The notes: generated by a model from the letters alone, not told the origin. Counted from the first letter of the stretch, positions 29,691 to 39,124 are shown. The stretch: DNA of 64,000 nt from an uncultured delta proteobacterium (GCA_963792965.1 CAWBYW010000004.1:96001-160000), one strand, 5' to 3'. Program-made: numbers and translations.

Positions 29691-30710
29691 CTATGCTTTT
29701 CCCCGTCTCTCATAAAGGCTTTTCTGGTGAGCCGCCCACTCCTCGAAGTTCGCCTTGATGGCGTTGAACTCCTGGTTGCTGTCGATGTCGAGCGCCGCCC
29801 CGCCGTACGTTGTCTCCACCGTCCTGAGGCGCGTGCCGAGGACCGCCCCTACGGCCGGCTCCACCTGGTCGTGGAGGCTGATGATCATGCGCAGCCGCTC
29901 TGAAACGGACGTGAGCCCCATCGAGGTGAGCATCAGGGCGGCCTGGAGAATCGCGAAGTAGAAGAGGGATTTCAGGCTCTTCTTCTCCGTCCATACGAGC
30001 TCCCAGGCCAGCTTCGCGATATCCCGCCACTCCCGCTGGTGGCGGTACTCGTACATCTTCTCGATGTATATCTTATTCGCGATGGCAAACGGGCGGCCGA
30101 TGTGCAGGTTGTTCTGACGAAAGAGCCCTTCCCTGAAGTGAAAGTAGGCGTGCTTGATTCCCTTTTTCTTCTTCCTCTTCCCCTTTCGACGCTGGGGATA
30201 GTAGTCGGCAAGATTCGTGTTCCTCGAGACTCCGGGCTGGTAATCGTAGTTCGCGAGATCGGCGTTAGCCAACAGCTCGTCTACTTCATAGGGAGTGAGC
30301 AACGGGATGTCGCCGGGCAGGAACATGATAACCTTGTTCCAATAACGGGTGCCCCGGTATGACTCGGGGTCGACTGATGCGGTATGCCCGGGTATGGTAA
30401 AGAGGAAGCCGTTCCAGGCGTTGGCATAGAGGCTGTCCCACTGATTGAGGACCGTGACCTTCTTTCCGTGCGCGTCGGTCCGCCCCGCGGCCAGCGCGTC
30501 CTCAATTCTTTTTTTCGGACCAACGATGTATATATCGTTGACGTACCGCGCTGCGGACAGAGCCTCCACGATATAGCAGATGACCGCCCTATCGTTGATG
30601 ACGAGCAGCGACTTGTTCTTCCCTTTGACCTTTCGGCTGGCCTTACGGTCCCCCGCCACGATAACGGCGTCGTAGCGCTCGGTTGTGCCTTCCGTTTTTC
30701 CTGTTTTCAT
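29691..30710 (-). CDS. MobA-like NTP transferase domain protein
   Basis: AVIVAGD..KNKSLL N-terminus, GDIPLL, LDIDS. Confidence 0.75.
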   Translation of the reverse strand: MKTGKTEGTTERYDAVIVAGDRKASRKVKGKNKSLLVINDRAVICYIVEALSAARYVNDIYIVGPKKRIEDALAAGRTDAHGKKVTVLNQWDSLYANAWNGFLFTIPGHTASVDPESYRGTRYWNKVIMFLPGDIPLLTPYEVDELLANADLANYDYQPGVSRNTNLADYYPQRRKGKRKKKKGIKHAYFHFREGLFRQNNLHIGRPFAIANKIYIEKMYEYRHQREWRDIAKLAWELVWTEKKSLKSLFYFAILQAALMLTSMGLTSVSERLRMIISLHDQVEPAVGAVLGTRLRTVETTYGGAALDIDSNQEFNAIKANFEEWAAHQKSLYERRGKA

Positions 30711-30870
30711 AGGCCACAAAAATATAGCAATCACGCCCTGTTAAGTCAAGCAGTATATGACCTTTTTGTTGACATGCGGGCGTTTTATGATACGGTATGG
30801 AGAAGGCCGCGTTTCGGAGACGGGGCGGCCGGGTTTTCCCTTCATCGGCGAGTATCGACAGGTGTCATGG

Positions 30871-31927
30871 ATGGCGACCATTCGCGTCGGATTGATCGGG
30901 GCGGGCCTCTTGGGCCTGACCCATTCGGTGTCGTTACTGCTATTGAAAAACGCCGGCCTCTTTGACCTCGAGCTCGTCTCGGTCTACGATCCCGAGAGGG
31001 CGGCCGCCGAGTCACTGGCCAAAAACATCGGCTTTGGGCACGTCGCTCAGTCGGCCCGCGAGATCGTTGGGGACGATACCGTCGATACCGTCTACATCGC
31101 CACCCCGACCCTTTTTCACCACGACTATGTGATCGATGCCGCCCGCGCCGGCAAGAACATCTTTTGCGAAAAGCCCCTCTTTATCGACCTTCCCGGCGCG
31201 GGAAATGGGTAACGCCGTGGCCGAGGCCGGGGTTGTGGGAGGGGTGGGGTTGGTGCTGCGGTTCTCGCCGACCTATCGTTTCATCCGTGACGAGATCGGC
31301 CGGGCCGACTGGGGCACGCCGATCATCGTCACCCTTCGCAACGACCAGTGTCTCCCGATCCGCGGACTCCACCACACCGCCTGGCGCGCCGACCGGTCGA
31401 TCTCGGGCGGCGGGGCGTTGATCGAGCACAGCATCCACGATATCGATCTCTTTTCGTGGTTCTTCGGCAGACCTAAGATCACGGACGTCTCGATCAGGTA
31501 TCTGACGGGACGCCAAGGAATCGAGGACTACGCCCGCGTCACGATGGTGTTTGAAAGCGGCATGGAGGGTGTCCTTTCCTCCATCTGGCACGACATGGTC
31601 ACCAGGGTCAGCAACCGGCGGCTGGAGATTATCTTTGATCGGCTCTATATCGCCACCGATCACGACGTTATCGGCCCCGTCGAGTATACCGAGGGAGACG
31701 GGGAGCTTGTCATCGTCGAAAAGGAGCGCGTCCTCTCGCATTTTCTTGACGTGATGGGACTTTCAGATCCGTTTTTTTCCACGCTTGACTATACGACCTT
31801 CGGGTCGTATACCGTTGAGGACTACTTTTTCATCAAGGCGGTCGTCGAGAGAAAGGCCTTCTCGCCGGGATTTTCGGAGGCCGTGGCGGCCCACGAGATC
31901 GTCGACGAGATATACCGGAGTGCCTGA
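30871..31927 (+). CDS. Gfo/Idh/MocA family oxidoreductase; frameshift near 31200
   Basis: VGLIGAG, IATPTLFH, CEKP, GGGALIEHSIHDID. Confidence 0.88.
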
Positions 31928-31983: not shown

Positions 31984-32883
31984 ATGAGCGGCAACACGTT
32001 AAAGCCTCCCGAGGTGCTCCGCGATAAGGACGGGTTCATCGCCCTGATCGCGGAGCGGCTGGCCGGCCACCCCCACAACTTCGCCTCCCGACGGCGTGAG
32101 ATAGAAGAGCAGGAGCGGCAGGGGGGACGCATCGCCACGTCGGGTGTAATCCTCCTGGTCCGTTACTCGGAAAAGTCGAAGGGGTACGAGCTGATTCTCA
32201 CGAAGCGATCGGCCCACGTTACCCAGCCGGGCGACCTGAGCTTTCCGGGGGGCCATGTCCACAAAATGGACAAGTACCACGGCCTTCTGATTTCAGGAGG
32301 GGTCTCTCCCTGTGCGCGGGGAGAGGGGATCGGCGCGGGAAGGAGCTCCGGCGACCGGGCCGGTTTTCGGATCGCCGCCGACTACCTTGCCACGGCGCTG
32401 CGCGAGACGCGGGAGGAAACGGGGATACCGTGCCGGGCGATCCGCTATCTCGGGTCACTGCCGTCCTACGGGATGGTCTCGTTTCGGAGGGTTATTTACC
32501 CGGCGGTTGGGGTCGTCGTGGGTGATTTTGTTGAGTGTCTCAGCTGGGAGGTGGAGAGGCTGGTCCGCATCGATCTCTCGGATCTCTATGAGGCCGAACG
32601 CTTCCATTGGATTCGATTCGAGGTGCCGGACGACATCCGGGAGGCATCCGGGAGATCGGACTGGAACTTCCCGTGCTTCGTGACCGGAGACGGCGACACG
32701 CGGGAGATCCTCTGGGGGGCGACCTTCAACATCATCCTCTCCTTCTTGTGGATCGTGCTAAGCTTCCCGCTCCCCGATATCCCGAGGGACCGGTTCGTGA
32801 CGAAGGAAATCCCCGTGAACTACTTTACGGGGACTTTTCGGCGCGACCTGAAGGAGGGATTGATACGGGAAAAGAAGAAGTAA
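31984..32883 (+). CDS. CoA pyrophosphatase-like NUDIX hydrolase (NudL type)
   Basis: LTKRS..QPGDLSFPGG, ALRETREETG, LWGAT. Confidence 0.82.
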   Translation: MSGNTLKPPEVLRDKDGFIALIAERLAGHPHNFASRRREIEEQERQGGRIATSGVILLVRYSEKSKGYELILTKRSAHVTQPGDLSFPGGHVHKMDKYHGLLISGGVSPCARGEGIGAGRSSGDRAGFRIAADYLATALRETREETGIPCRAIRYLGSLPSYGMVSFRRVIYPAVGVVVGDFVECLSWEVERLVRIDLSDLYEAERFHWIRFEVPDDIREASGRSDWNFPCFVTGDGDTREILWGATFNIILSFLWIVLSFPLPDIPRDRFVTKEIPVNYFTGTFRRDLKEGLIREKKK

Positions 32884-33188: not shown

Positions 33189-33662
33189 ATGAAAATGCTC
33201 CACCTTTTCCTCTTATGTGCGACCATCCTGATCTCGGCGGCCGCCTGTACGGGGAAGTCTCAGGACACGGGCGAGTATCTGGAATTCAACAGCGGGGGCG
33301 CTTTTCATCCTTCCGGGCACGGCCAATGGACGGCGAGGCTCTGCAGGGACGGGACCCTCTCCGTCCGACATACCGTGAGGGATAACGTCGTATCGGACAG
33401 CGTCTTCACCCTCACGGGTGATGAGGTGAATCGGCTCTTCGGCCTCTTCTGTTCGGTCAACGTCAAGGGATTGGGATCGTCGACACGCCCGGGCCTGCCC
33501 GACGAGGCGGAGTATATCTTTGTCCTGAAGGACGGTTCGGGCATCTTCAAGAAATCGGTCTGGATCGGCGATGCGCAGGACAACGCAGCGATTATGGAGC
33601 TGGTGGGTTATACCGAGACGCTTATCCAGAAATATACCGGTGAGAAGCCCGTGCTGCGCTGA
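33189..33662 (+). CDS. Hypothetical lipoprotein
   Basis: Signal peptide ending AAA-C; GAGG SD. Confidence 0.7.
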   Translation: MKMLHLFLLCATILISAAACTGKSQDTGEYLEFNSGGAFHPSGHGQWTARLCRDGTLSVRHTVRDNVVSDSVFTLTGDEVNRLFGLFCSVNVKGLGSSTRPGLPDEAEYIFVLKDGSGIFKKSVWIGDAQDNAAIMELVGYTETLIQKYTGEKPVLR

Positions 33663-34296: not shown

Positions 34297-35094
34297 CTAT
34301 TTATCCATGATCTCGGAAATACGGGAGATCGAGGCGGCCCAGCCCGTCTCTTCATCGATCTCGCACAGGATAGCGTCTGCCCGGGCGCGCCCCTGGGCCG
34401 GCTTCGGGAAACTCTTGATCGAGGTGGTGAAGCGCCTGATTTCCCCCTCTTTCTCAAATCCCACCACGGAATCGTAGGCGCCGATCATCCCGACATCCGT
34501 GATGGAGGCGGTTCCGGTCTTGCTGACCGACTCGTCGGACGTCTGGACGAGTGTCCCCGTCCCCGCAATCAGGGACAGCATCCCGTCCAGGTGGTGCTTC
34601 ATTGCCGCTTTTTCCGCGGAGGGGACGGCGTAAAAATCCATAACGATTACCTGCACGCTTTCCCGCATCCCCTTGAGTATCCCCTGGACGATGGGAAAGG
34701 GGTTTTCGGGTAGGAGCTTTTTGATGAAGGTATATCCGGAGAGGTTAATGATTCCGACGCGGGGCGATCCTTTCGCCGCCTCGGTAATGAGTATCCCCTT
34801 GCCCGGGCTTGTTGGGGGGAGGTTGTGGGGGCGAAGCACCCGGTCGGTCTTGGCGATGAAGTCTTCGATGTCGCTCTGGGACCAGATGTCCTGTCCCATC
34901 GTGATGACGTCGACCCCCGCGTCCAAGAGCTCGGTGGCGGTGTCTTTCGTGAGGCCGGCGCCTTCGGCCGCGTGGTTTGCGTTGGCGATCACGAGATCGG
35001 GCCTGCCGTCTCGTTTGACAATATCGGCCAGAAACCGGGTGGCCGCGTGCCTCCCCGTCTTCCCCACGATCACGCCGAGAAAGAGTATCTTCAT
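34297..35094 (-). CDS. YmdB-family protein lacking all metal ligands (probable pseudoenzyme)
   Basis: YmdB scaffold kept end to end (MKILF.G..VG..GR, LRP.N.P...PGKG, INL.G.TF, EK, VQT.DE, ITDVGM.G) but D/E/N/H ligands substituted. Confidence 0.85.
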   Translation of the reverse strand: MKILFLGVIVGKTGRHAATRFLADIVKRDGRPDLVIANANHAAEGAGLTKDTATELLDAGVDVITMGQDIWSQSDIEDFIAKTDRVLRPHNLPPTSPGKGILITEAAKGSPRVGIINLSGYTFIKKLLPENPFPIVQGILKGMRESVQVIVMDFYAVPSAEKAAMKHHLDGMLSLIAGTGTLVQTSDESVSKTGTASITDVGMIGAYDSVVGFEKEGEIRRFTTSIKSFPKPAQGRARADAILCEIDEETGWAASISRISEIMDK

Positions 35095-35900
35095 AGATGT
35101 GCTTCCCGAATTTTCATCGTGTCGGCGTTCATCCTCAGGACGGTACGTGTCTTCCTGAAGAAACCGAGATTCATCGCCGTCGTGCGTCCGATCTTGATAT
35201 CCCTCAGCCGTGGGTTGTGGACGTGCCCGAAAAAAGAATAGGTCGGCTCGTGCCGATAAATATAGTCCAGGAGATCCGCGCTTGCGCGCTCATCCCTCCG
35301 GGCAATGGTATCGTAGATGATGTCCGGGACCTCCGGCGGGACATGGGTGACGACTATGTCCACAGTCCCAAGTGAAAATATCCGCCGGTGGAAGTCGGCG
35401 CGGGGGACTTCACCGGAAAGCCCCATGGTGCCCTTTCCCTCGGGCATCCCCGAGACGAGGCCGATTTTAATATCTCGGACGTCGATAACACTCGACTCAA
35501 CGAGGCGGGCCCTTCCATCGAGCCTCGCCTTGAGGATATCGGGATAGTCGTCGTTACCGTAGATAATATAGGCGGGGCAGGGGAGCGATTCTTTCAGCCG
35601 GTCATAAGTTTCTTCGATGAGGGGGCGCACCCTCTCGTAGCGCGGCTCGCCCGGCGTCGAGACCTCTCGGATCCCCTGGCGCACGCGGGCAAAGTTCCCC
35701 TTCGCATACTCCGCCAGCCCTTCCGCGAGCTCTTCGGGGGTGAAGGCGTGCCAGAGGATCCCCTTCGTGATATCGGCAAAATCCATGAAGTTGAGGAGAT
35801 CCCCCGCGATAAAGAGGGTGTCCTCGGCCGCGCAGAGACGCGAGAGGGCGTCGAATTCCCCGTGGATATCGCCGACGAAAACCAGCTCTCCGTTGCCCAT
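35091..35900 (-). CDS. Calcineurin-like metallophosphoesterase (Icc-related)
   Basis: GDIHG, GDLLN, GNDD, THVPP, FGHVH; ATGA overlap with the YmdB-like gene. Confidence 0.85.
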   Translation of the reverse strand: MGNGELVFVGDIHGEFDALSRLCAAEDTLFIAGDLLNFMDFADITKGILWHAFTPEELAEGLAEYAKGNFARVRQGIREVSTPGEPRYERVRPLIEETYDRLKESLPCPAYIIYGNDDYPDILKARLDGRARLVESSVIDVRDIKIGLVSGMPEGKGTMGLSGEVPRADFHRRIFSLGTVDIVVTHVPPEVPDIIYDTIARRDERASADLLDYIYRHEPTYSFFGHVHNPRLRDIKIGRTTAMNLGFFRKTRTVLRMNADTMKIREAHL

Positions 35901-35981: not shown

Positions 35982-38126
35982 TTATCCGAGGCCGAGCACG
36001 AGCCCGATCCGGTAGGCCGCAAACGCCACGATCCATGCAAGCACAAGGGAGTAGCCCACGGAGAAGGCGGCAAAGGTCGGGGAGGCCTCCCGGCTGATGG
36101 CGCCCACCGCCGCCAGGCACGGCGTGTAAAGGAGGACGAAGATCATGAAGGCATAGGCGGCGGCGCTCGTCCATCCGGCCCCCTTCATCGCATCACCGAT
36201 GGACCGCTTGCCCCCCGCTCCGTACAGGACACCGAAGGTGGAGACGACGATCTCCTTTGCGACGAAGCCGCTCAAAAGCGCGACGGACGCCTCCCAGGGA
36301 AAGCCGATGGGGGCAAAGACCGGGGAGACCGCAAGCCCGATCCGCTCGAGATAGCTTGCGCGGGAGAGGTCAAGAGGACTTTTCGTTTCCGCGCCGCCCC
36401 GGGCGGGCAGCGTGGCTGATACCGTGTCGCCGCCGGCGACGGTGTAGGTCGTCTCGGCCGGACGGGGCGCGGCGCCGCCGGTCGTGCCGATCGTGGCGGG
36501 GTAATGGGAGAGGAGAAAGACCACGATCGCGCCCAACAGGATAACCGTTGACATCTTCCTTAAGAAGAGCGAGCCCTGCTCCCACATATGCAAGAGTGTG
36601 CCGCGGAGCGTGGGAAGGCGGTAGGGCGGCAGCTCCATGACGAAGGGGGCGCTCTTCTTCGGGAAGAGGGCCTTCCTGAAGAACCTGCCGAGGATAAAGG
36701 CCAACACGATCCCCAACAGATAGACAGAAAAGATTACGTTACCTGCGTGGCTCGGGAAAAAGGTCCCGGCCAGAAGAATATAAACGGGAAGACGGGCGCT
36801 GCAGCTCACCAGCGGGTTGATCAGGATGGTGATGATACGGTCGTCCCTCGAGTCGAGCGTGCGCGTTGCCATGATGGCCGGGACGTTGCACCCAAACCCC
36901 ATGATCATCGGGATGAACGATTTACCGTGGAGGCCGAGAGAATGCATGACCTTGTCCATGATGAAGGCGGCCCGTGCCATGTACCCCGTGTCCTCGAAGA
37001 TCGAGATGATGAGGTAGAGAATAAATATGTTGGGAACGAAGACGGCCACCCCGCCGACGCCGGGGATAATCCCCTCGGCCAGGAGCGCGCTGAAGAAGCC
37101 GCCGGGCAAAACCGTCAGGACGAATCGGGAAAGCCACTCCACCCCATCCTTGATCCAGTGGGCCGGGTATCCGCCGAGCGTGAAGGTGAGCTGGAACATC
37201 GCCCAGATGAAGAAGAAAAGGATCGGAAAGCCGAGGATGCGGTTGATGAGGACGGCGTCGATTCTGTTGCTGACGTCGATCCGGTCTCTCTTCTCGCGTC
37301 GGACCGCTTCCCTGACGGCGCCGCCGATGAATCCATACCGACGGTCCACTATGATCGTGGCCGGATCGTCGCCGAAAAGCGACGTGACGCGTGATCCGGC
37401 GATCCTTACGGATTTCAGGGCGTCGGCGGCAGACGTGGACTTCTCGGTGACAAGGCGTGTTACGTCGGGGTCGTCTTCGAGGAGCTTGACGGCGATCCAG
37501 CGCGTGGGGTAGGCGGACGCGAAGGCGCGATCGCGGGCCAGGATCGTCCGAATCGCCTGGATCTCTTCTTCGATCTCCTTCGGATATCGGATCTCAACGT
37601 CCCGCGTTGGCTCTTCGGCGGCCGGCCCCTCCTCGTAGGCGGAGACGATCGCGCCAAGCAACTCGGTAAAGCCCTCGCCCTTCGTGCCGACGACCGAGAC
37701 AATCGGTGTCCCGAAGAGATGTGAGAGGCCCTCGGTGTCGATAGCGAGCCCGTTTTCTCGGGCAAGGTCCGTCATCGTGAATGCAAGAACCAGCTTTACT
37801 TTGAGCTCGATCAATTGGGCGGTGAGATAGAGGTTGCGATCGAGGTTGGATGCATCGACGACGTTGAGCACGACGTCTGGCTTTTCGGTCAGGATAAAAT
37901 TCCTGGCGATGATTTCTTCGATCGAGTAGGCGGTCAGGCTGTAGATGCCCGGAAGGTCGACGAAATGAATGGTATAGTCGCCGGACCGGGCCGTCCCTTC
38001 CTTCTTCTCGACCGTTACCCCGCTCCAGTTCCCGACCTTCTGCCGGGATCCGGTGAGCCGGTTGAAGATCGTGGTTTTGCCTGCGTTGGGATTTCCCGCC
38101 AGCGCTACGGTGATTTTTTTCGCCAA
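35982..38126 (-). CDS. feoB: Ferrous iron transporter FeoB
   Basis: GNPNAGKT, GNWSGVTVE, DLPGIYSL, EDTGYMARAA, GFGCNVPA, FVMELPPY. Confidence 0.97.
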   Translation of the reverse strand: MAKKITVALAGNPNAGKTTIFNRLTGSRQKVGNWSGVTVEKKEGTARSGDYTIHFVDLPGIYSLTAYSIEEIIARNFILTEKPDVVLNVVDASNLDRNLYLTAQLIELKVKLVLAFTMTDLARENGLAIDTEGLSHLFGTPIVSVVGTKGEGFTELLGAIVSAYEEGPAAEEPTRDVEIRYPKEIEEEIQAIRTILARDRAFASAYPTRWIAVKLLEDDPDVTRLVTEKSTSAADALKSVRIAGSRVTSLFGDDPATIIVDRRYGFIGGAVREAVRREKRDRIDVSNRIDAVLINRILGFPILFFFIWAMFQLTFTLGGYPAHWIKDGVEWLSRFVLTVLPGGFFSALLAEGIIPGVGGVAVFVPNIFILYLIISIFEDTGYMARAAFIMDKVMHSLGLHGKSFIPMIMGFGCNVPAIMATRTLDSRDDRIITILINPLVSCSARLPVYILLAGTFFPSHAGNVIFSVYLLGIVLAFILGRFFRKALFPKKSAPFVMELPPYRLPTLRGTLLHMWEQGSLFLRKMSTVILLGAIVVFLLSHYPATIGTTGGAAPRPAETTYTVAGGDTVSATLPARGGAETKSPLDLSRASYLERIGLAVSPVFAPIGFPWEASVALLSGFVAKEIVVSTFGVLYGAGGKRSIGDAMKGAGWTSAAAYAFMIFVLLYTPCLAAVGAISREASPTFAAFSVGYSLVLAWIVAFAAYRIGLVLGLG

Positions 38127-38413
38127 CGGTGACGTCCCCCGTGGGAACCACCTTCAGATGCGGGTTCCGATTTCAGGGATAATCGGCGGGGGGGCAGGGT
38201 AACCTCAACGAAAGAAGAATCCTCCCTCCGGAGGCTTACGTGATAGTGCTTAATAACGAATTCAATAGGGTCCTTCAGGGGGGCATAGCGCTGGACGAAG
38301 ACAGTCTCGCCGGGAATGAATCCCATCTCCATCAGCCTTTTCCTGAAAGGTCCGCTGCCGCGGACATGCGAGATGGTCGCGCAATTACCTTGTTTGAGAT
38401 CCGCCAACGTCAT
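38105..38413 (-). CDS. feoA: Ferrous iron transport protein FeoA
   Basis: RLMEMGFIPG, APLKDP, SLRR; directly upstream of feoB. Confidence 0.93.
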   Translation of the reverse strand: MTLADLKQGNCATISHVRGSGPFRKRLMEMGFIPGETVFVQRYAPLKDPIEFVIKHYHVSLRREDSSFVEVTLPPRRLSLKSEPASEGGSHGGRHRWRKKSP

Positions 38414-38638: not shown

Positions 38639-39064
38639 TTATCGACATTTACCGCAAAATCCCCTGATCCTCAATTCATGATCGATGGAAGTAAAGTCGT
38701 TCTTCTCGCAAATAAGATCCTGGTACCGTTCTATCGAGTCATCTCTGAATTCTATAATCCTGCCGCACGCGATACAGATCAGATGATCGTGATGATCATG
38801 TCCAAACATATATTCATAGCCCACCGTGCTTTGACGACTGAGGCTCTCCTTCACGAGGCCGCTCTCGATAAGGAGTGGGAGGGTCCTGTAGACGGAGGCA
38901 CGGGAGATGAGCTTGCCCTGTCCGCGGAGATGCTCGTAGAGCTCGTCGGCGCTGAAATGACGTCCTATAGCTGCTGCGCCCTCTAAAACAGCATGCCGCT
39001 CGGCCGTAGATTTTAGGCCCTTTATCTTGAGGAAATCGGTGAAAATTTTCTTTGGTACTCTCAT
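38639..39064 (-). CDS. fur: Fur family transcriptional repressor
   Basis: HFSADEL, SRASVYRTL, HHDHLICIACG, CGKC; adjacent to feoAB. Confidence 0.92.
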   Translation of the reverse strand: MRVPKKIFTDFLKIKGLKSTAERHAVLEGAAAIGRHFSADELYEHLRGQGKLISRASVYRTLPLLIESGLVKESLSRQSTVGYEYMFGHDHHDHLICIACGRIIEFRDDSIERYQDLICEKNDFTSIDHELRIRGFCGKCR

Positions 39065-39074
39065 CGTTTTATAC

Positions 39075-39089
39075 TGATATTGAGTCTCA
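39075..39089. promoter_or_regulatory. Fur box upstream of fur (autoregulation)
   Basis: TGATATTGAGTCTCA 7-1-7 palindrome between the -10 and the start codon; a further half-site TGAGAAT at 39110. Confidence 0.65.
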
Positions 39090-39095
39090 ATTACA

Positions 39096-39124
39096 CTTAT
39101 ATCAGACAATGAGAATCATGTCAA
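39096..39124 (-). promoter_or_regulatory. Sigma70 promoter of fur
   Basis: TTGACA-N17-TATAAG with extended TG. Confidence 0.65.

Follow-up and report, generated by a model that had tools for sequence, protein, structure and literature searches.

The gene at positions 34297..35094 (minus strand) of the DNA examined here encodes a paralogue of the phosphodiesterase YmdB in which every ligand of the two-metal site, and the catalytic histidine as well, has been replaced. The DNA is a stretch of 64,000 nucleotides from an uncultured delta proteobacterium (GCA_963792965.1, CAWBYW010000004.1:96001-160000), called the window below. The paralogue has kept the YmdB fold and is under purifying selection, and the genomes that carry it also carry an intact, canonical YmdB. 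Its gene is paired with a gene for a second metallophosphoesterase of 269 amino acids, termed MPE269 here, which has the same narrow distribution. Our preferred reading, to which we give slightly less than an even chance, is that the paralogue is a pseudo-phosphodiesterase acting as a non-catalytic subunit or adaptor of MPE269. The two proteins would then be physically associated and would divide the labour between them.

Sequence and fold of the paralogue

The open reading frame (ORF) begins with ATG, encodes 265 amino acids and has no internal stops. Its product matched the Pfam YmdB profile PF13277 from end to end, with residues 4-259 covering profile positions 1-253 at 252.3 bits (cut-off 27), and a phmmer comparison with Bacillus subtilis YmdB (4b2o_A) gave an E value of 6e-47. 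The AlphaFold2 (AF2) model, made with a 38-row alignment, had a predicted local distance difference test score (pLDDT) of 91.4 and a predicted template modelling score (pTM) of 0.91. Foldseek placed this model on 4b2o_A with template modelling (TM) scores of 0.92/0.93, a root-mean-square deviation of 1.7 A and 35% identity, and ranks 2-4 of the fold search were other solved entries of the YmdB family. By sequence and by fold, therefore, the paralogue belongs to the Pfam YmdB family. An earlier note on this DNA had described a full-length YmdB homologue of 265 amino acids without a frameshift, giving no strand for it, and the open ATG frame and the end-to-end profile match agree with that description.

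The NCBIfam model TIGR00282, a hypothetical equivalog, gave 203.9 bits with the paralogue, under its cut-off of 254.15. By this score, and by its metal ligands, its catalytic histidine and its genomic context, which are described below, the paralogue is not a functional orthologue of YmdB. No match to the paralogue was found in the defence-system libraries.

Replacement of the metal ligands

According to PMC10406935, the iron site of YmdB is made up of D8, E39, N40, N67, H150, H175 and H177, with H68 and D71 as the catalytic residues. When the paralogue was aligned with 4b2o_A, D8 was found to be replaced by V8, E39 by N40, N40 by H41, N67 by Q68, H150 by Y155, H175 by G180 and H177 by L182; that is, 0/7 of the di-metal ligands are retained. 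The catalytic His68 of the GNH motif has become D69. The codons concerned, all on the minus strand, lie at 35071-35073 (V8), 34972-34977 (N40/H41), 34888-34893 (Q68/D69), 34630-34632 (Y155), 34555-34557 (G180) and 34549-34551 (L182). The strings GV, ANH, GQD, DFYAV and GTGTL that the earlier note had read in this protein are all present, and the alignment confirmed its statement that the equivalents of Asp8, Glu39, Asn40, Asn67, His68, His150, His175 and His177 are all changed. The D71 equivalent is also altered, to S72, but this says little because the position is D in just 77/148 representatives from outside the clade defined below. With all seven ligands and the catalytic histidine replaced, canonical two-metal hydrolysis of phosphodiesters is therefore impossible for the paralogue. 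What remains is a YmdB scaffold that has lost its active site.

A search of 5.8 billion proteins gave a clade of 28 full-length relatives, 50-76% identical, together with one fragment of 163 amino acids from the C-terminal part. The earlier note had proposed that orthologues be collected, and the losses turned out to be shared across this 28-member clade, with the ligands absent from the fragment as well. Position 8 is V in 27/28 proteins and G in one; position 40 is N or D, position 41 is H, F, Y or N and position 68 is Q or E. At position 69, where the catalytic histidine should be, N occurs in 22/28, D in 5/28 and H in 1/28. Position 155 is F, Y or C, position 180 is G in 28/28 and position 182 is L in 22/28, with H, S, Y and M making up the rest of its spectrum. 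The only canonical residues surviving at ligand positions in the clade are thus H177, in 3/28, and H68, in 1/28.

The losses were set beside 61 reference columns, defined as positions at least 90% conserved among 112 canonical YmdBs. The clade has kept 44 of these and lost 11, and 6 are mixed. The lost columns include D8, E39, N40, H68, H150 and H175, which are six of the eight positions named by the earlier note; H177 is mixed, and N67 is under the threshold because some canonical proteins carry D there. Motifs common to the clade and to active YmdBs are RPxN, an AEK resembling SEK, QTAD and TDxGxxG. With 44 of the 61 columns kept and a TM score of 0.92 to 4b2o_A, the preservation of the flanking scaffold, which had also been claimed, is upheld. 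Of the 148 representatives from outside the clade, 140 have the full set of seven ligands together with H68 (E or D being allowed at 39 and N or D at 67). The pattern of ligand loss is more than chance.

Three of the 148 (P0259, P0271 and P0285) have 4-5 of the 8 positions changed and keep H150 and H175. P0285 belongs to metagenome-assembled genomes (MAGs) of the Sphaerochaetaceae (L031-L034), with 2-3 YmdB-family matches in each genome checked. One copy scored 293-296 bits with PF13277 in two of these genomes, being split in two pieces in the third, and the other copies scored 242-265 bits. The degenerate YmdB at L032:4001-4828 has no metallophosphoesterase among 8 neighbouring ORFs, which include LptC/LptA-like, aldo-keto reductase and flavodoxin-like genes. 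Erosion of the ligands may be recurrent in the YmdB family; complete loss of the ligands together with pairing to MPE269 is specific to the 28-member clade. A separate observation in the family was P0166 (565 amino acids), a fusion that joins a canonical YmdB domain and a FolD (methylene-tetrahydrofolate dehydrogenase/cyclohydrolase) module.

Selection on the paralogue

Ratios of non-synonymous to synonymous substitution rates (dN/dS) were calculated pairwise by the Nei-Gojobori method (NG86) for seven genomes; 18/21 pairs were computable and synonymous sites were near saturation in most of them. The paralogue gave values of 0.09-0.23. In the two least saturated pairs the values were 0.14 and 0.18, compared with 0.094 and 0.103 when the canonical YmdB genes of these genomes were used, and the neighbour gene gave 0.14 in the same least-saturated comparison. 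One related MAG locus, L006, was left out of the calculation because its assembly is frameshifted in FeoB, in MPE269 and at the 5' end of the paralogue. In that locus FeoB is in four pieces, MPE269 contains stops and the 5' end of the paralogue is out of frame, which looks like assembly indel errors rather than gene decay. Short-read contigs spanning the V8, N40/H41 and Q68/D69 codons showed no difference from the window; they cover the stretch in part and come from runs that are possibly from the source sample.

The paralogue is under purifying selection and is a product neither of error nor of decay. The earlier note had already held that read error and random decay do not account for the substitutions, and the clade-wide losses and the dN/dS values bear this out. 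Purifying selection, for which it had proposed a check, was found, and the two cases that would have told against it, namely read error and intact close orthologues with a neutrally evolving copy here, are both excluded. Its description of a selected, metal-free protein stands as regards the selection and the loss of the di-metal site; the absence of metal remains a prediction from the sequence.

The canonical copy and the distribution of the paralogue

The genome from which the window derives has a second match to PF13277, of 353 bits, on contig C10; the paralogue, with 252 bits, is on contig C4. This second protein has 273 amino acids and intact GD, GEN, GNH, DFHGE and GTHTH motifs. Its gene lies between rny (RNase Y) and tyrS, and it is the canonical ymdB near rny that the earlier note had suggested be looked for. 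The paralogue, which is 37% identical to it, is encoded between MPE269 and a GNAT gene and so is not adjacent to rny. A check with PF13277 found the canonical copy in addition to the paralogue in 8/8 genomes (the window's own and 7/7 relatives found with the clade profile). The marks of a pseudoenzyme, namely group-wide loss of the residues, purifying selection and an active paralogue in the same genome, were thus all found.

The distribution was examined in a phylum sample of 401 genomes, 10 from the family of the window and 391 others. The clade profile gave two matches in 10/10 family genomes, the paralogue at 400-484 bits and the canonical copy at 238-261 bits, and no match above 270.5 bits in the 391 others. 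Genomes with both copies are recorded as Candidatus Zymogenaceae, Candidatus Zymogenus and uncultured delta proteobacterium / Thermodesulfobacteriota. YmdB itself is widespread, since 6264 proteins among 1.84 billion representatives at 50% identity match the clade profile. The clade accounts for one of these representatives (462.8 bits) and one fragment, the next match being at 251.9 bits, and no lineage intermediate between the clade and other YmdBs was seen among the 1.84 billion. The 28 relatives in the clade carry PF13277 only; among the matches listed, all those at 46% identity or less also carry PF00149. The paralogue is peculiar to a single bacterial family.

A quick maximum-likelihood tree of 80 proteins placed the clade on a single branch with a Shimodaira-Hasegawa-like approximate likelihood ratio test (SH-aLRT) value of 100 and a stem of 0.87 changes per site. 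The canonical YmdBs of the family are on a separate branch, also with an SH-aLRT value of 100. The backbone of the tree is unresolved, and either duplication within the lineage or transfer may be the origin of the paralogue.

The partner gene MPE269

MPE269 is encoded at 35091..35900 (minus strand) and matched PF00149 with 36.8 bits against a cut-off of 21.5. The motifs D11xH13, G33D34, G115N116-D-D118, H186 and G225H226xH228 are intact and are invariant in 36/36 homologues, and by these motifs MPE269 is a member of the calcineurin-like metallophosphoesterase superfamily. The third motif is GNDD (GNVD in 2), i.e. it has no histidine. The AF2 model of MPE269 had a pLDDT of 92.1 and its best match in the PDB was 2yvt (TM 0.67-0.70), followed by 1uf3 (TM 0.53-0.65); 3e0j, an entry for the human DNA polymerase delta regulatory subunit, was among the distant fold matches. 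A profile of MPE269 found no chain below E 0.38 among PDB sequences. As regards function, the PDB profile, fold and look-alike searches gave only uncharacterised or generic phosphoesterases. The sole match in the defence-system libraries was a partial one to PDC-S10 of 39.5 bits, which is read as generic similarity within the superfamily.

MPE269 lies directly upstream of the paralogue on the same strand in 7/7 related loci searched with tblastn, and adjacency by coordinates was found in 10/10 family genomes. In the window the MPE269 stop and the paralogue start overlap by 4 nucleotides, read as ATGA at 35091..35094 (minus strand). The same overlap occurs in 6/8 junctions examined (the window's own, L004, L005, L008, L009 and L010); of the remaining two, L007 has a gap of 75 nucleotides and the frameshifted assembly of L006 makes the junction unreadable. 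An ATGA overlap is the usual signature of translational coupling. Only 38 relatives of MPE269 were present in the 5.8 billion proteins, all at least 45% identical, and 17/38 agree with a paralogue entry in the length of the longest contig, which suggests that they are on the same contigs. The MPE269 profile matched 10/10 family genomes at 325-484 bits, the lowest value being that of a frameshifted assembly, and gave 1 weak match of 40 bits in the other 391 genomes of the phylum. MPE269 and the paralogue thus share a narrow phyletic range. Because the flanking genes differ in the distal loci, the pair itself is all that is conserved. Co-folding of MPE269 with the paralogue returned a score of 0.00 and the verdict 'no answer' from the tool, and this counts neither for nor against binding.

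Genomic neighbourhood

Upstream of the pair, and also on the minus strand, are fur (38639-39109), feoA (38105-38413) and feoB (35982-38126), with 81 nucleotides between feoB and MPE269. FeoAB precedes the pair in 4/7 related loci and GNAT follows it in 4/7. Three loci, the most distant ones, lack FeoAB and have a gene for a PEMT/ICMT-like methyltransferase downstream in place of GNAT. Counting the window, the pair is in a same-strand gene run behind fur-feoA-feoB in 5/8 loci. A promoter and terminator scan gave only weak matches, including one weak terminator-like hairpin between feoB and MPE269. Twelve regions preceding feoA and MPE269 were scanned with a Fur-box consensus; no convincing site was found, the results being mostly no better than shuffles and the best candidate having 6 mismatches of 19.

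Several other genes near the pair are shared with relatives. The genes for a NUDIX-domain protein of 299 amino acids (31984-32883, plus strand; 72% identical in relatives) and for a MobA-like NTP-transferase-domain protein of 347 amino acids (29691-30734, minus strand) are syntenic across the family. A protein of 157 amino acids whose N-terminus resembles that of a lipoprotein, and which matches nothing in Pfam (33189-33662, plus strand), has counterparts of 51-58% identity in four related loci, in the same place between the NUDIX and GNAT genes. A Gfo/Idh/MocA oxidoreductase gene (30757-31927, plus strand), which occupies the same neighbourhood in relatives, is split in the window into two frames near 31190-31212, an N-terminal Rossmann piece at 30757-31212 and a C-terminal piece at 31136-31927; this may be a real frameshift or an assembly indel.

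Role of the paralogue

We propose that the paralogue is a pseudo-phosphodiesterase kept by purifying selection alongside the intact YmdB linked to rny. The paralogue and MPE269 would be made from one transcript and their translation is probably coupled. MPE269 would supply catalysis in a two-protein phosphoesterase, and the dead YmdB would supply recognition of a substrate or partner, or regulation, by way of the remnant of the YmdB substrate groove. The earlier note had left the choice among a sensor, a scaffold, a regulator of YmdB and a regulator of the coupled neighbour. The genomic evidence, in the form of adjacency in 10/10 genomes, an equal phyletic range and the ATGA overlap, favours the role with the coupled neighbour.

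Several points weigh against a subunit of MPE269. Genes may adjoin or even overlap without their products forming a complex. No fusion of MPE269 with the paralogue was found among proteins of 465-2000 amino acids, which is weak evidence; the same search gave only an unrelated HAD-YmdB fusion of 33% identity, and the other long YmdB representatives contained either FolD domains or nothing further that Pfam recognised. In a mirror-tree comparison of dN in 7 related genomes, with pairs that are not independent, the paralogue correlated with MPE269 at r 0.965 and with canonical YmdB at r 0.972, and the partial correlations were 0.38 and 0.56 respectively; the paralogue thus follows MPE269 no more closely than it follows canonical YmdB, in a comparison that is uninformative with so few related genomes. 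The loss of catalytic activity and the lack of metal are both predictions made from the residues alone. Polar residues persist across the clade at three former ligand positions (N/D40, Q/E68 and N/D69), where a weak single Mg or Ca site may exist, and 14 invariant or near-invariant residues, including Y121, N131, E218 and K227, are peculiar to the clade. These remnants and new residues are also what a pocket re-tooled for binding or catalysis, with no need of a partner, would show.

The alternative that survives best, though we think it unlikely and allow it a modest chance, is a binder or sensor that stands alone. The metal-free YmdB pocket would hold a nucleotide (e.g. a 2',3'-cyclic nucleoside monophosphate) or an RNA end uncleaved, so as to signal or sequester by itself, and the link to MPE269 would be one of co-regulation only. 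The 44 retained columns with their RPxN, AEK, QTAD and TDxGxxG motifs, and the polar residues kept at positions 40, 68 and 69, are in keeping with such a pocket, and the L032 copy in the Sphaerochaetaceae indicates that degenerate YmdBs can exist unpaired. However, a protein acting alone leaves unexplained the identical phyletic range, the 10/10 adjacency and the 4-nucleotide overlap in 6/8 junctions, all maintained amid varying neighbours.

The proposal of a subunit or adaptor of MPE269 can be carried further. The pair may be an unrecognised bacterial two-subunit phosphoesterase in which an unrelated, live metallophosphoesterase has taken on a dead YmdB as its subunit for specificity or regulation and so gained access to the YmdB substrate (perhaps 2',3'-cyclic phosphate ends of RNA or nucleotides); we give this fuller version only a small chance. 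The fur-feoA-feoB context in 5/8 loci could also mean that the two-subunit pair is a back-up, under iron limitation, for the iron-dependent canonical YmdB, to which the Fur-box scan lent no support.

A chance smaller still is given to a re-tooled enzyme, i.e. a protein that is not a pseudoenzyme and has a new chemistry, either mononuclear in metal or independent of metal, as in MslH. According to PMC10406935, the YmdB-like site of MslH has been rebuilt as an acid/base catalyst with one Ca(II), and most of the ligands are kept; in our clade, 4/7 have given way to non-coordinating residues. The clade does have invariant polar residues of its own (Y121, N131, E218 and K227) and a specific two-residue insertion, LP(D/E)NPFP, in the loop right after a core strand. 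The fixation of G180 (28/28) and V8 (27/28) suggests a specific new shape of the pocket over mere relaxation. Set against this, positions 41 (H/F/Y/N), 155 (F/Y/C) and 182 (L/H/S/Y/M) vary freely, as expected of relaxed sites, and the conserved neighbours suggest no candidate substrate.

The chance is slight that the dead paralogue enters oligomers of canonical YmdB, so as to modulate or poison what they do. Both proteins are present in 8/8 genomes by PF13277 and in 10/10 family genomes by coordinates, the fold is retained (TM 0.92), and the solved entries of the YmdB family hold 4 to 8 chains each, which is consistent with oligomers. However, the genes are unlinked (contigs C4 and C10), the proteins are only 37% identical with a stem of 0.87 changes per site, and the conserved coupling is with MPE269 and not with ymdB.

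Finally, an artefact or a decaying pseudogene has a negligible chance and is ruled out by the clade-wide conservation: the window assembly does have at least one apparent frameshift elsewhere, in the Gfo/Idh/MocA gene, but the paralogue frame is open and of full length, the same substitutions are shared by 28 proteins, encoded on many contigs, and by 10/10 family genomes, the dN/dS values are low (0.09-0.23) and the short-read contigs agree at the V8, N40/H41 and Q68/D69 codons.

Significance

According to PMC6123443, YmdB matters for decisions on biofilm and motility in Bacillus, its enzymatic activity is needed for its function in B. subtilis and its physiological substrate is still unknown. 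The paralogue is naturally dead yet selected and separates binding by YmdB from catalysis; it is therefore a ready-made probe for the ligand or partner of the family. If our proposal is true, the paralogue and MPE269 form a clean bacterial enzyme-pseudoenzyme pair inside the metallophosphoesterase superfamily. The paralogue occurs in just one uncultured family, and its function is a proposal. Inactive proteins with the metallophosphoesterase fold were already known as a kind, and what is new is the pairing with MPE269 in 10/10 genomes.

Comparison with known systems

B. subtilis YmdB (4b2o; PF13277/TIGR00282), a di-iron phosphodiesterase acting on 2',3'-cyclic nucleotides and bis-p-nitrophenyl phosphate, has the same fold and length as the paralogue. 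Unlike it, the paralogue has 0/7 metal ligands and no His68, is below the TIGR00282 cut-off, is not encoded beside rny and has the two-residue loop insertion and the 14 conserved residues specific to the clade. No account of an inactive YmdB turned up in full-text searches of the literature.

MslH, a lasso-peptide epimerase with a YmdB-like core (8gq9), came at rank 24 in the fold search with the paralogue model, with a TM score of 0.61. It is an example of the YmdB active-site architecture being rebuilt for a role other than that of a phosphodiesterase and, according to PMC10406935, it keeps most of the ligands, binds one Ca(II) and has 437 amino acids with extra domains and 16% identity to YmdB. 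The paralogue differs from MslH in the lack of extra domains and in the loss of the ligands. For MPE269, the nearest solved relatives are Aquifex aq_1956 (2yvt) and Thermus TT1561 (1uf3), which have classical metallophosphoesterase motifs like its own and only 11-16% identity to it. They are without a known substrate and therefore give no function for MPE269.

Vps29 of retromer and the B subunits of eukaryotic replicative DNA polymerases are inactive scaffolds with the metallophosphoesterase fold and, to our knowledge, the known inactive members of the superfamily are eukaryotic scaffolds of this sort. The paralogue resembles them in having a calcineurin-like fold that has stayed under selection after loss of the ligands. 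Vps29 and the polymerase B subunits are non-catalytic subunits of complexes, whereas the complex proposed here is predicted from the pairing of the genes. They are also eukaryotic, come from different branches of the superfamily and have partners other than phosphoesterases; the paralogue, in contrast, is bacterial, belongs to the YmdB branch and has its gene coupled to that of a live enzyme of the same superfamily.
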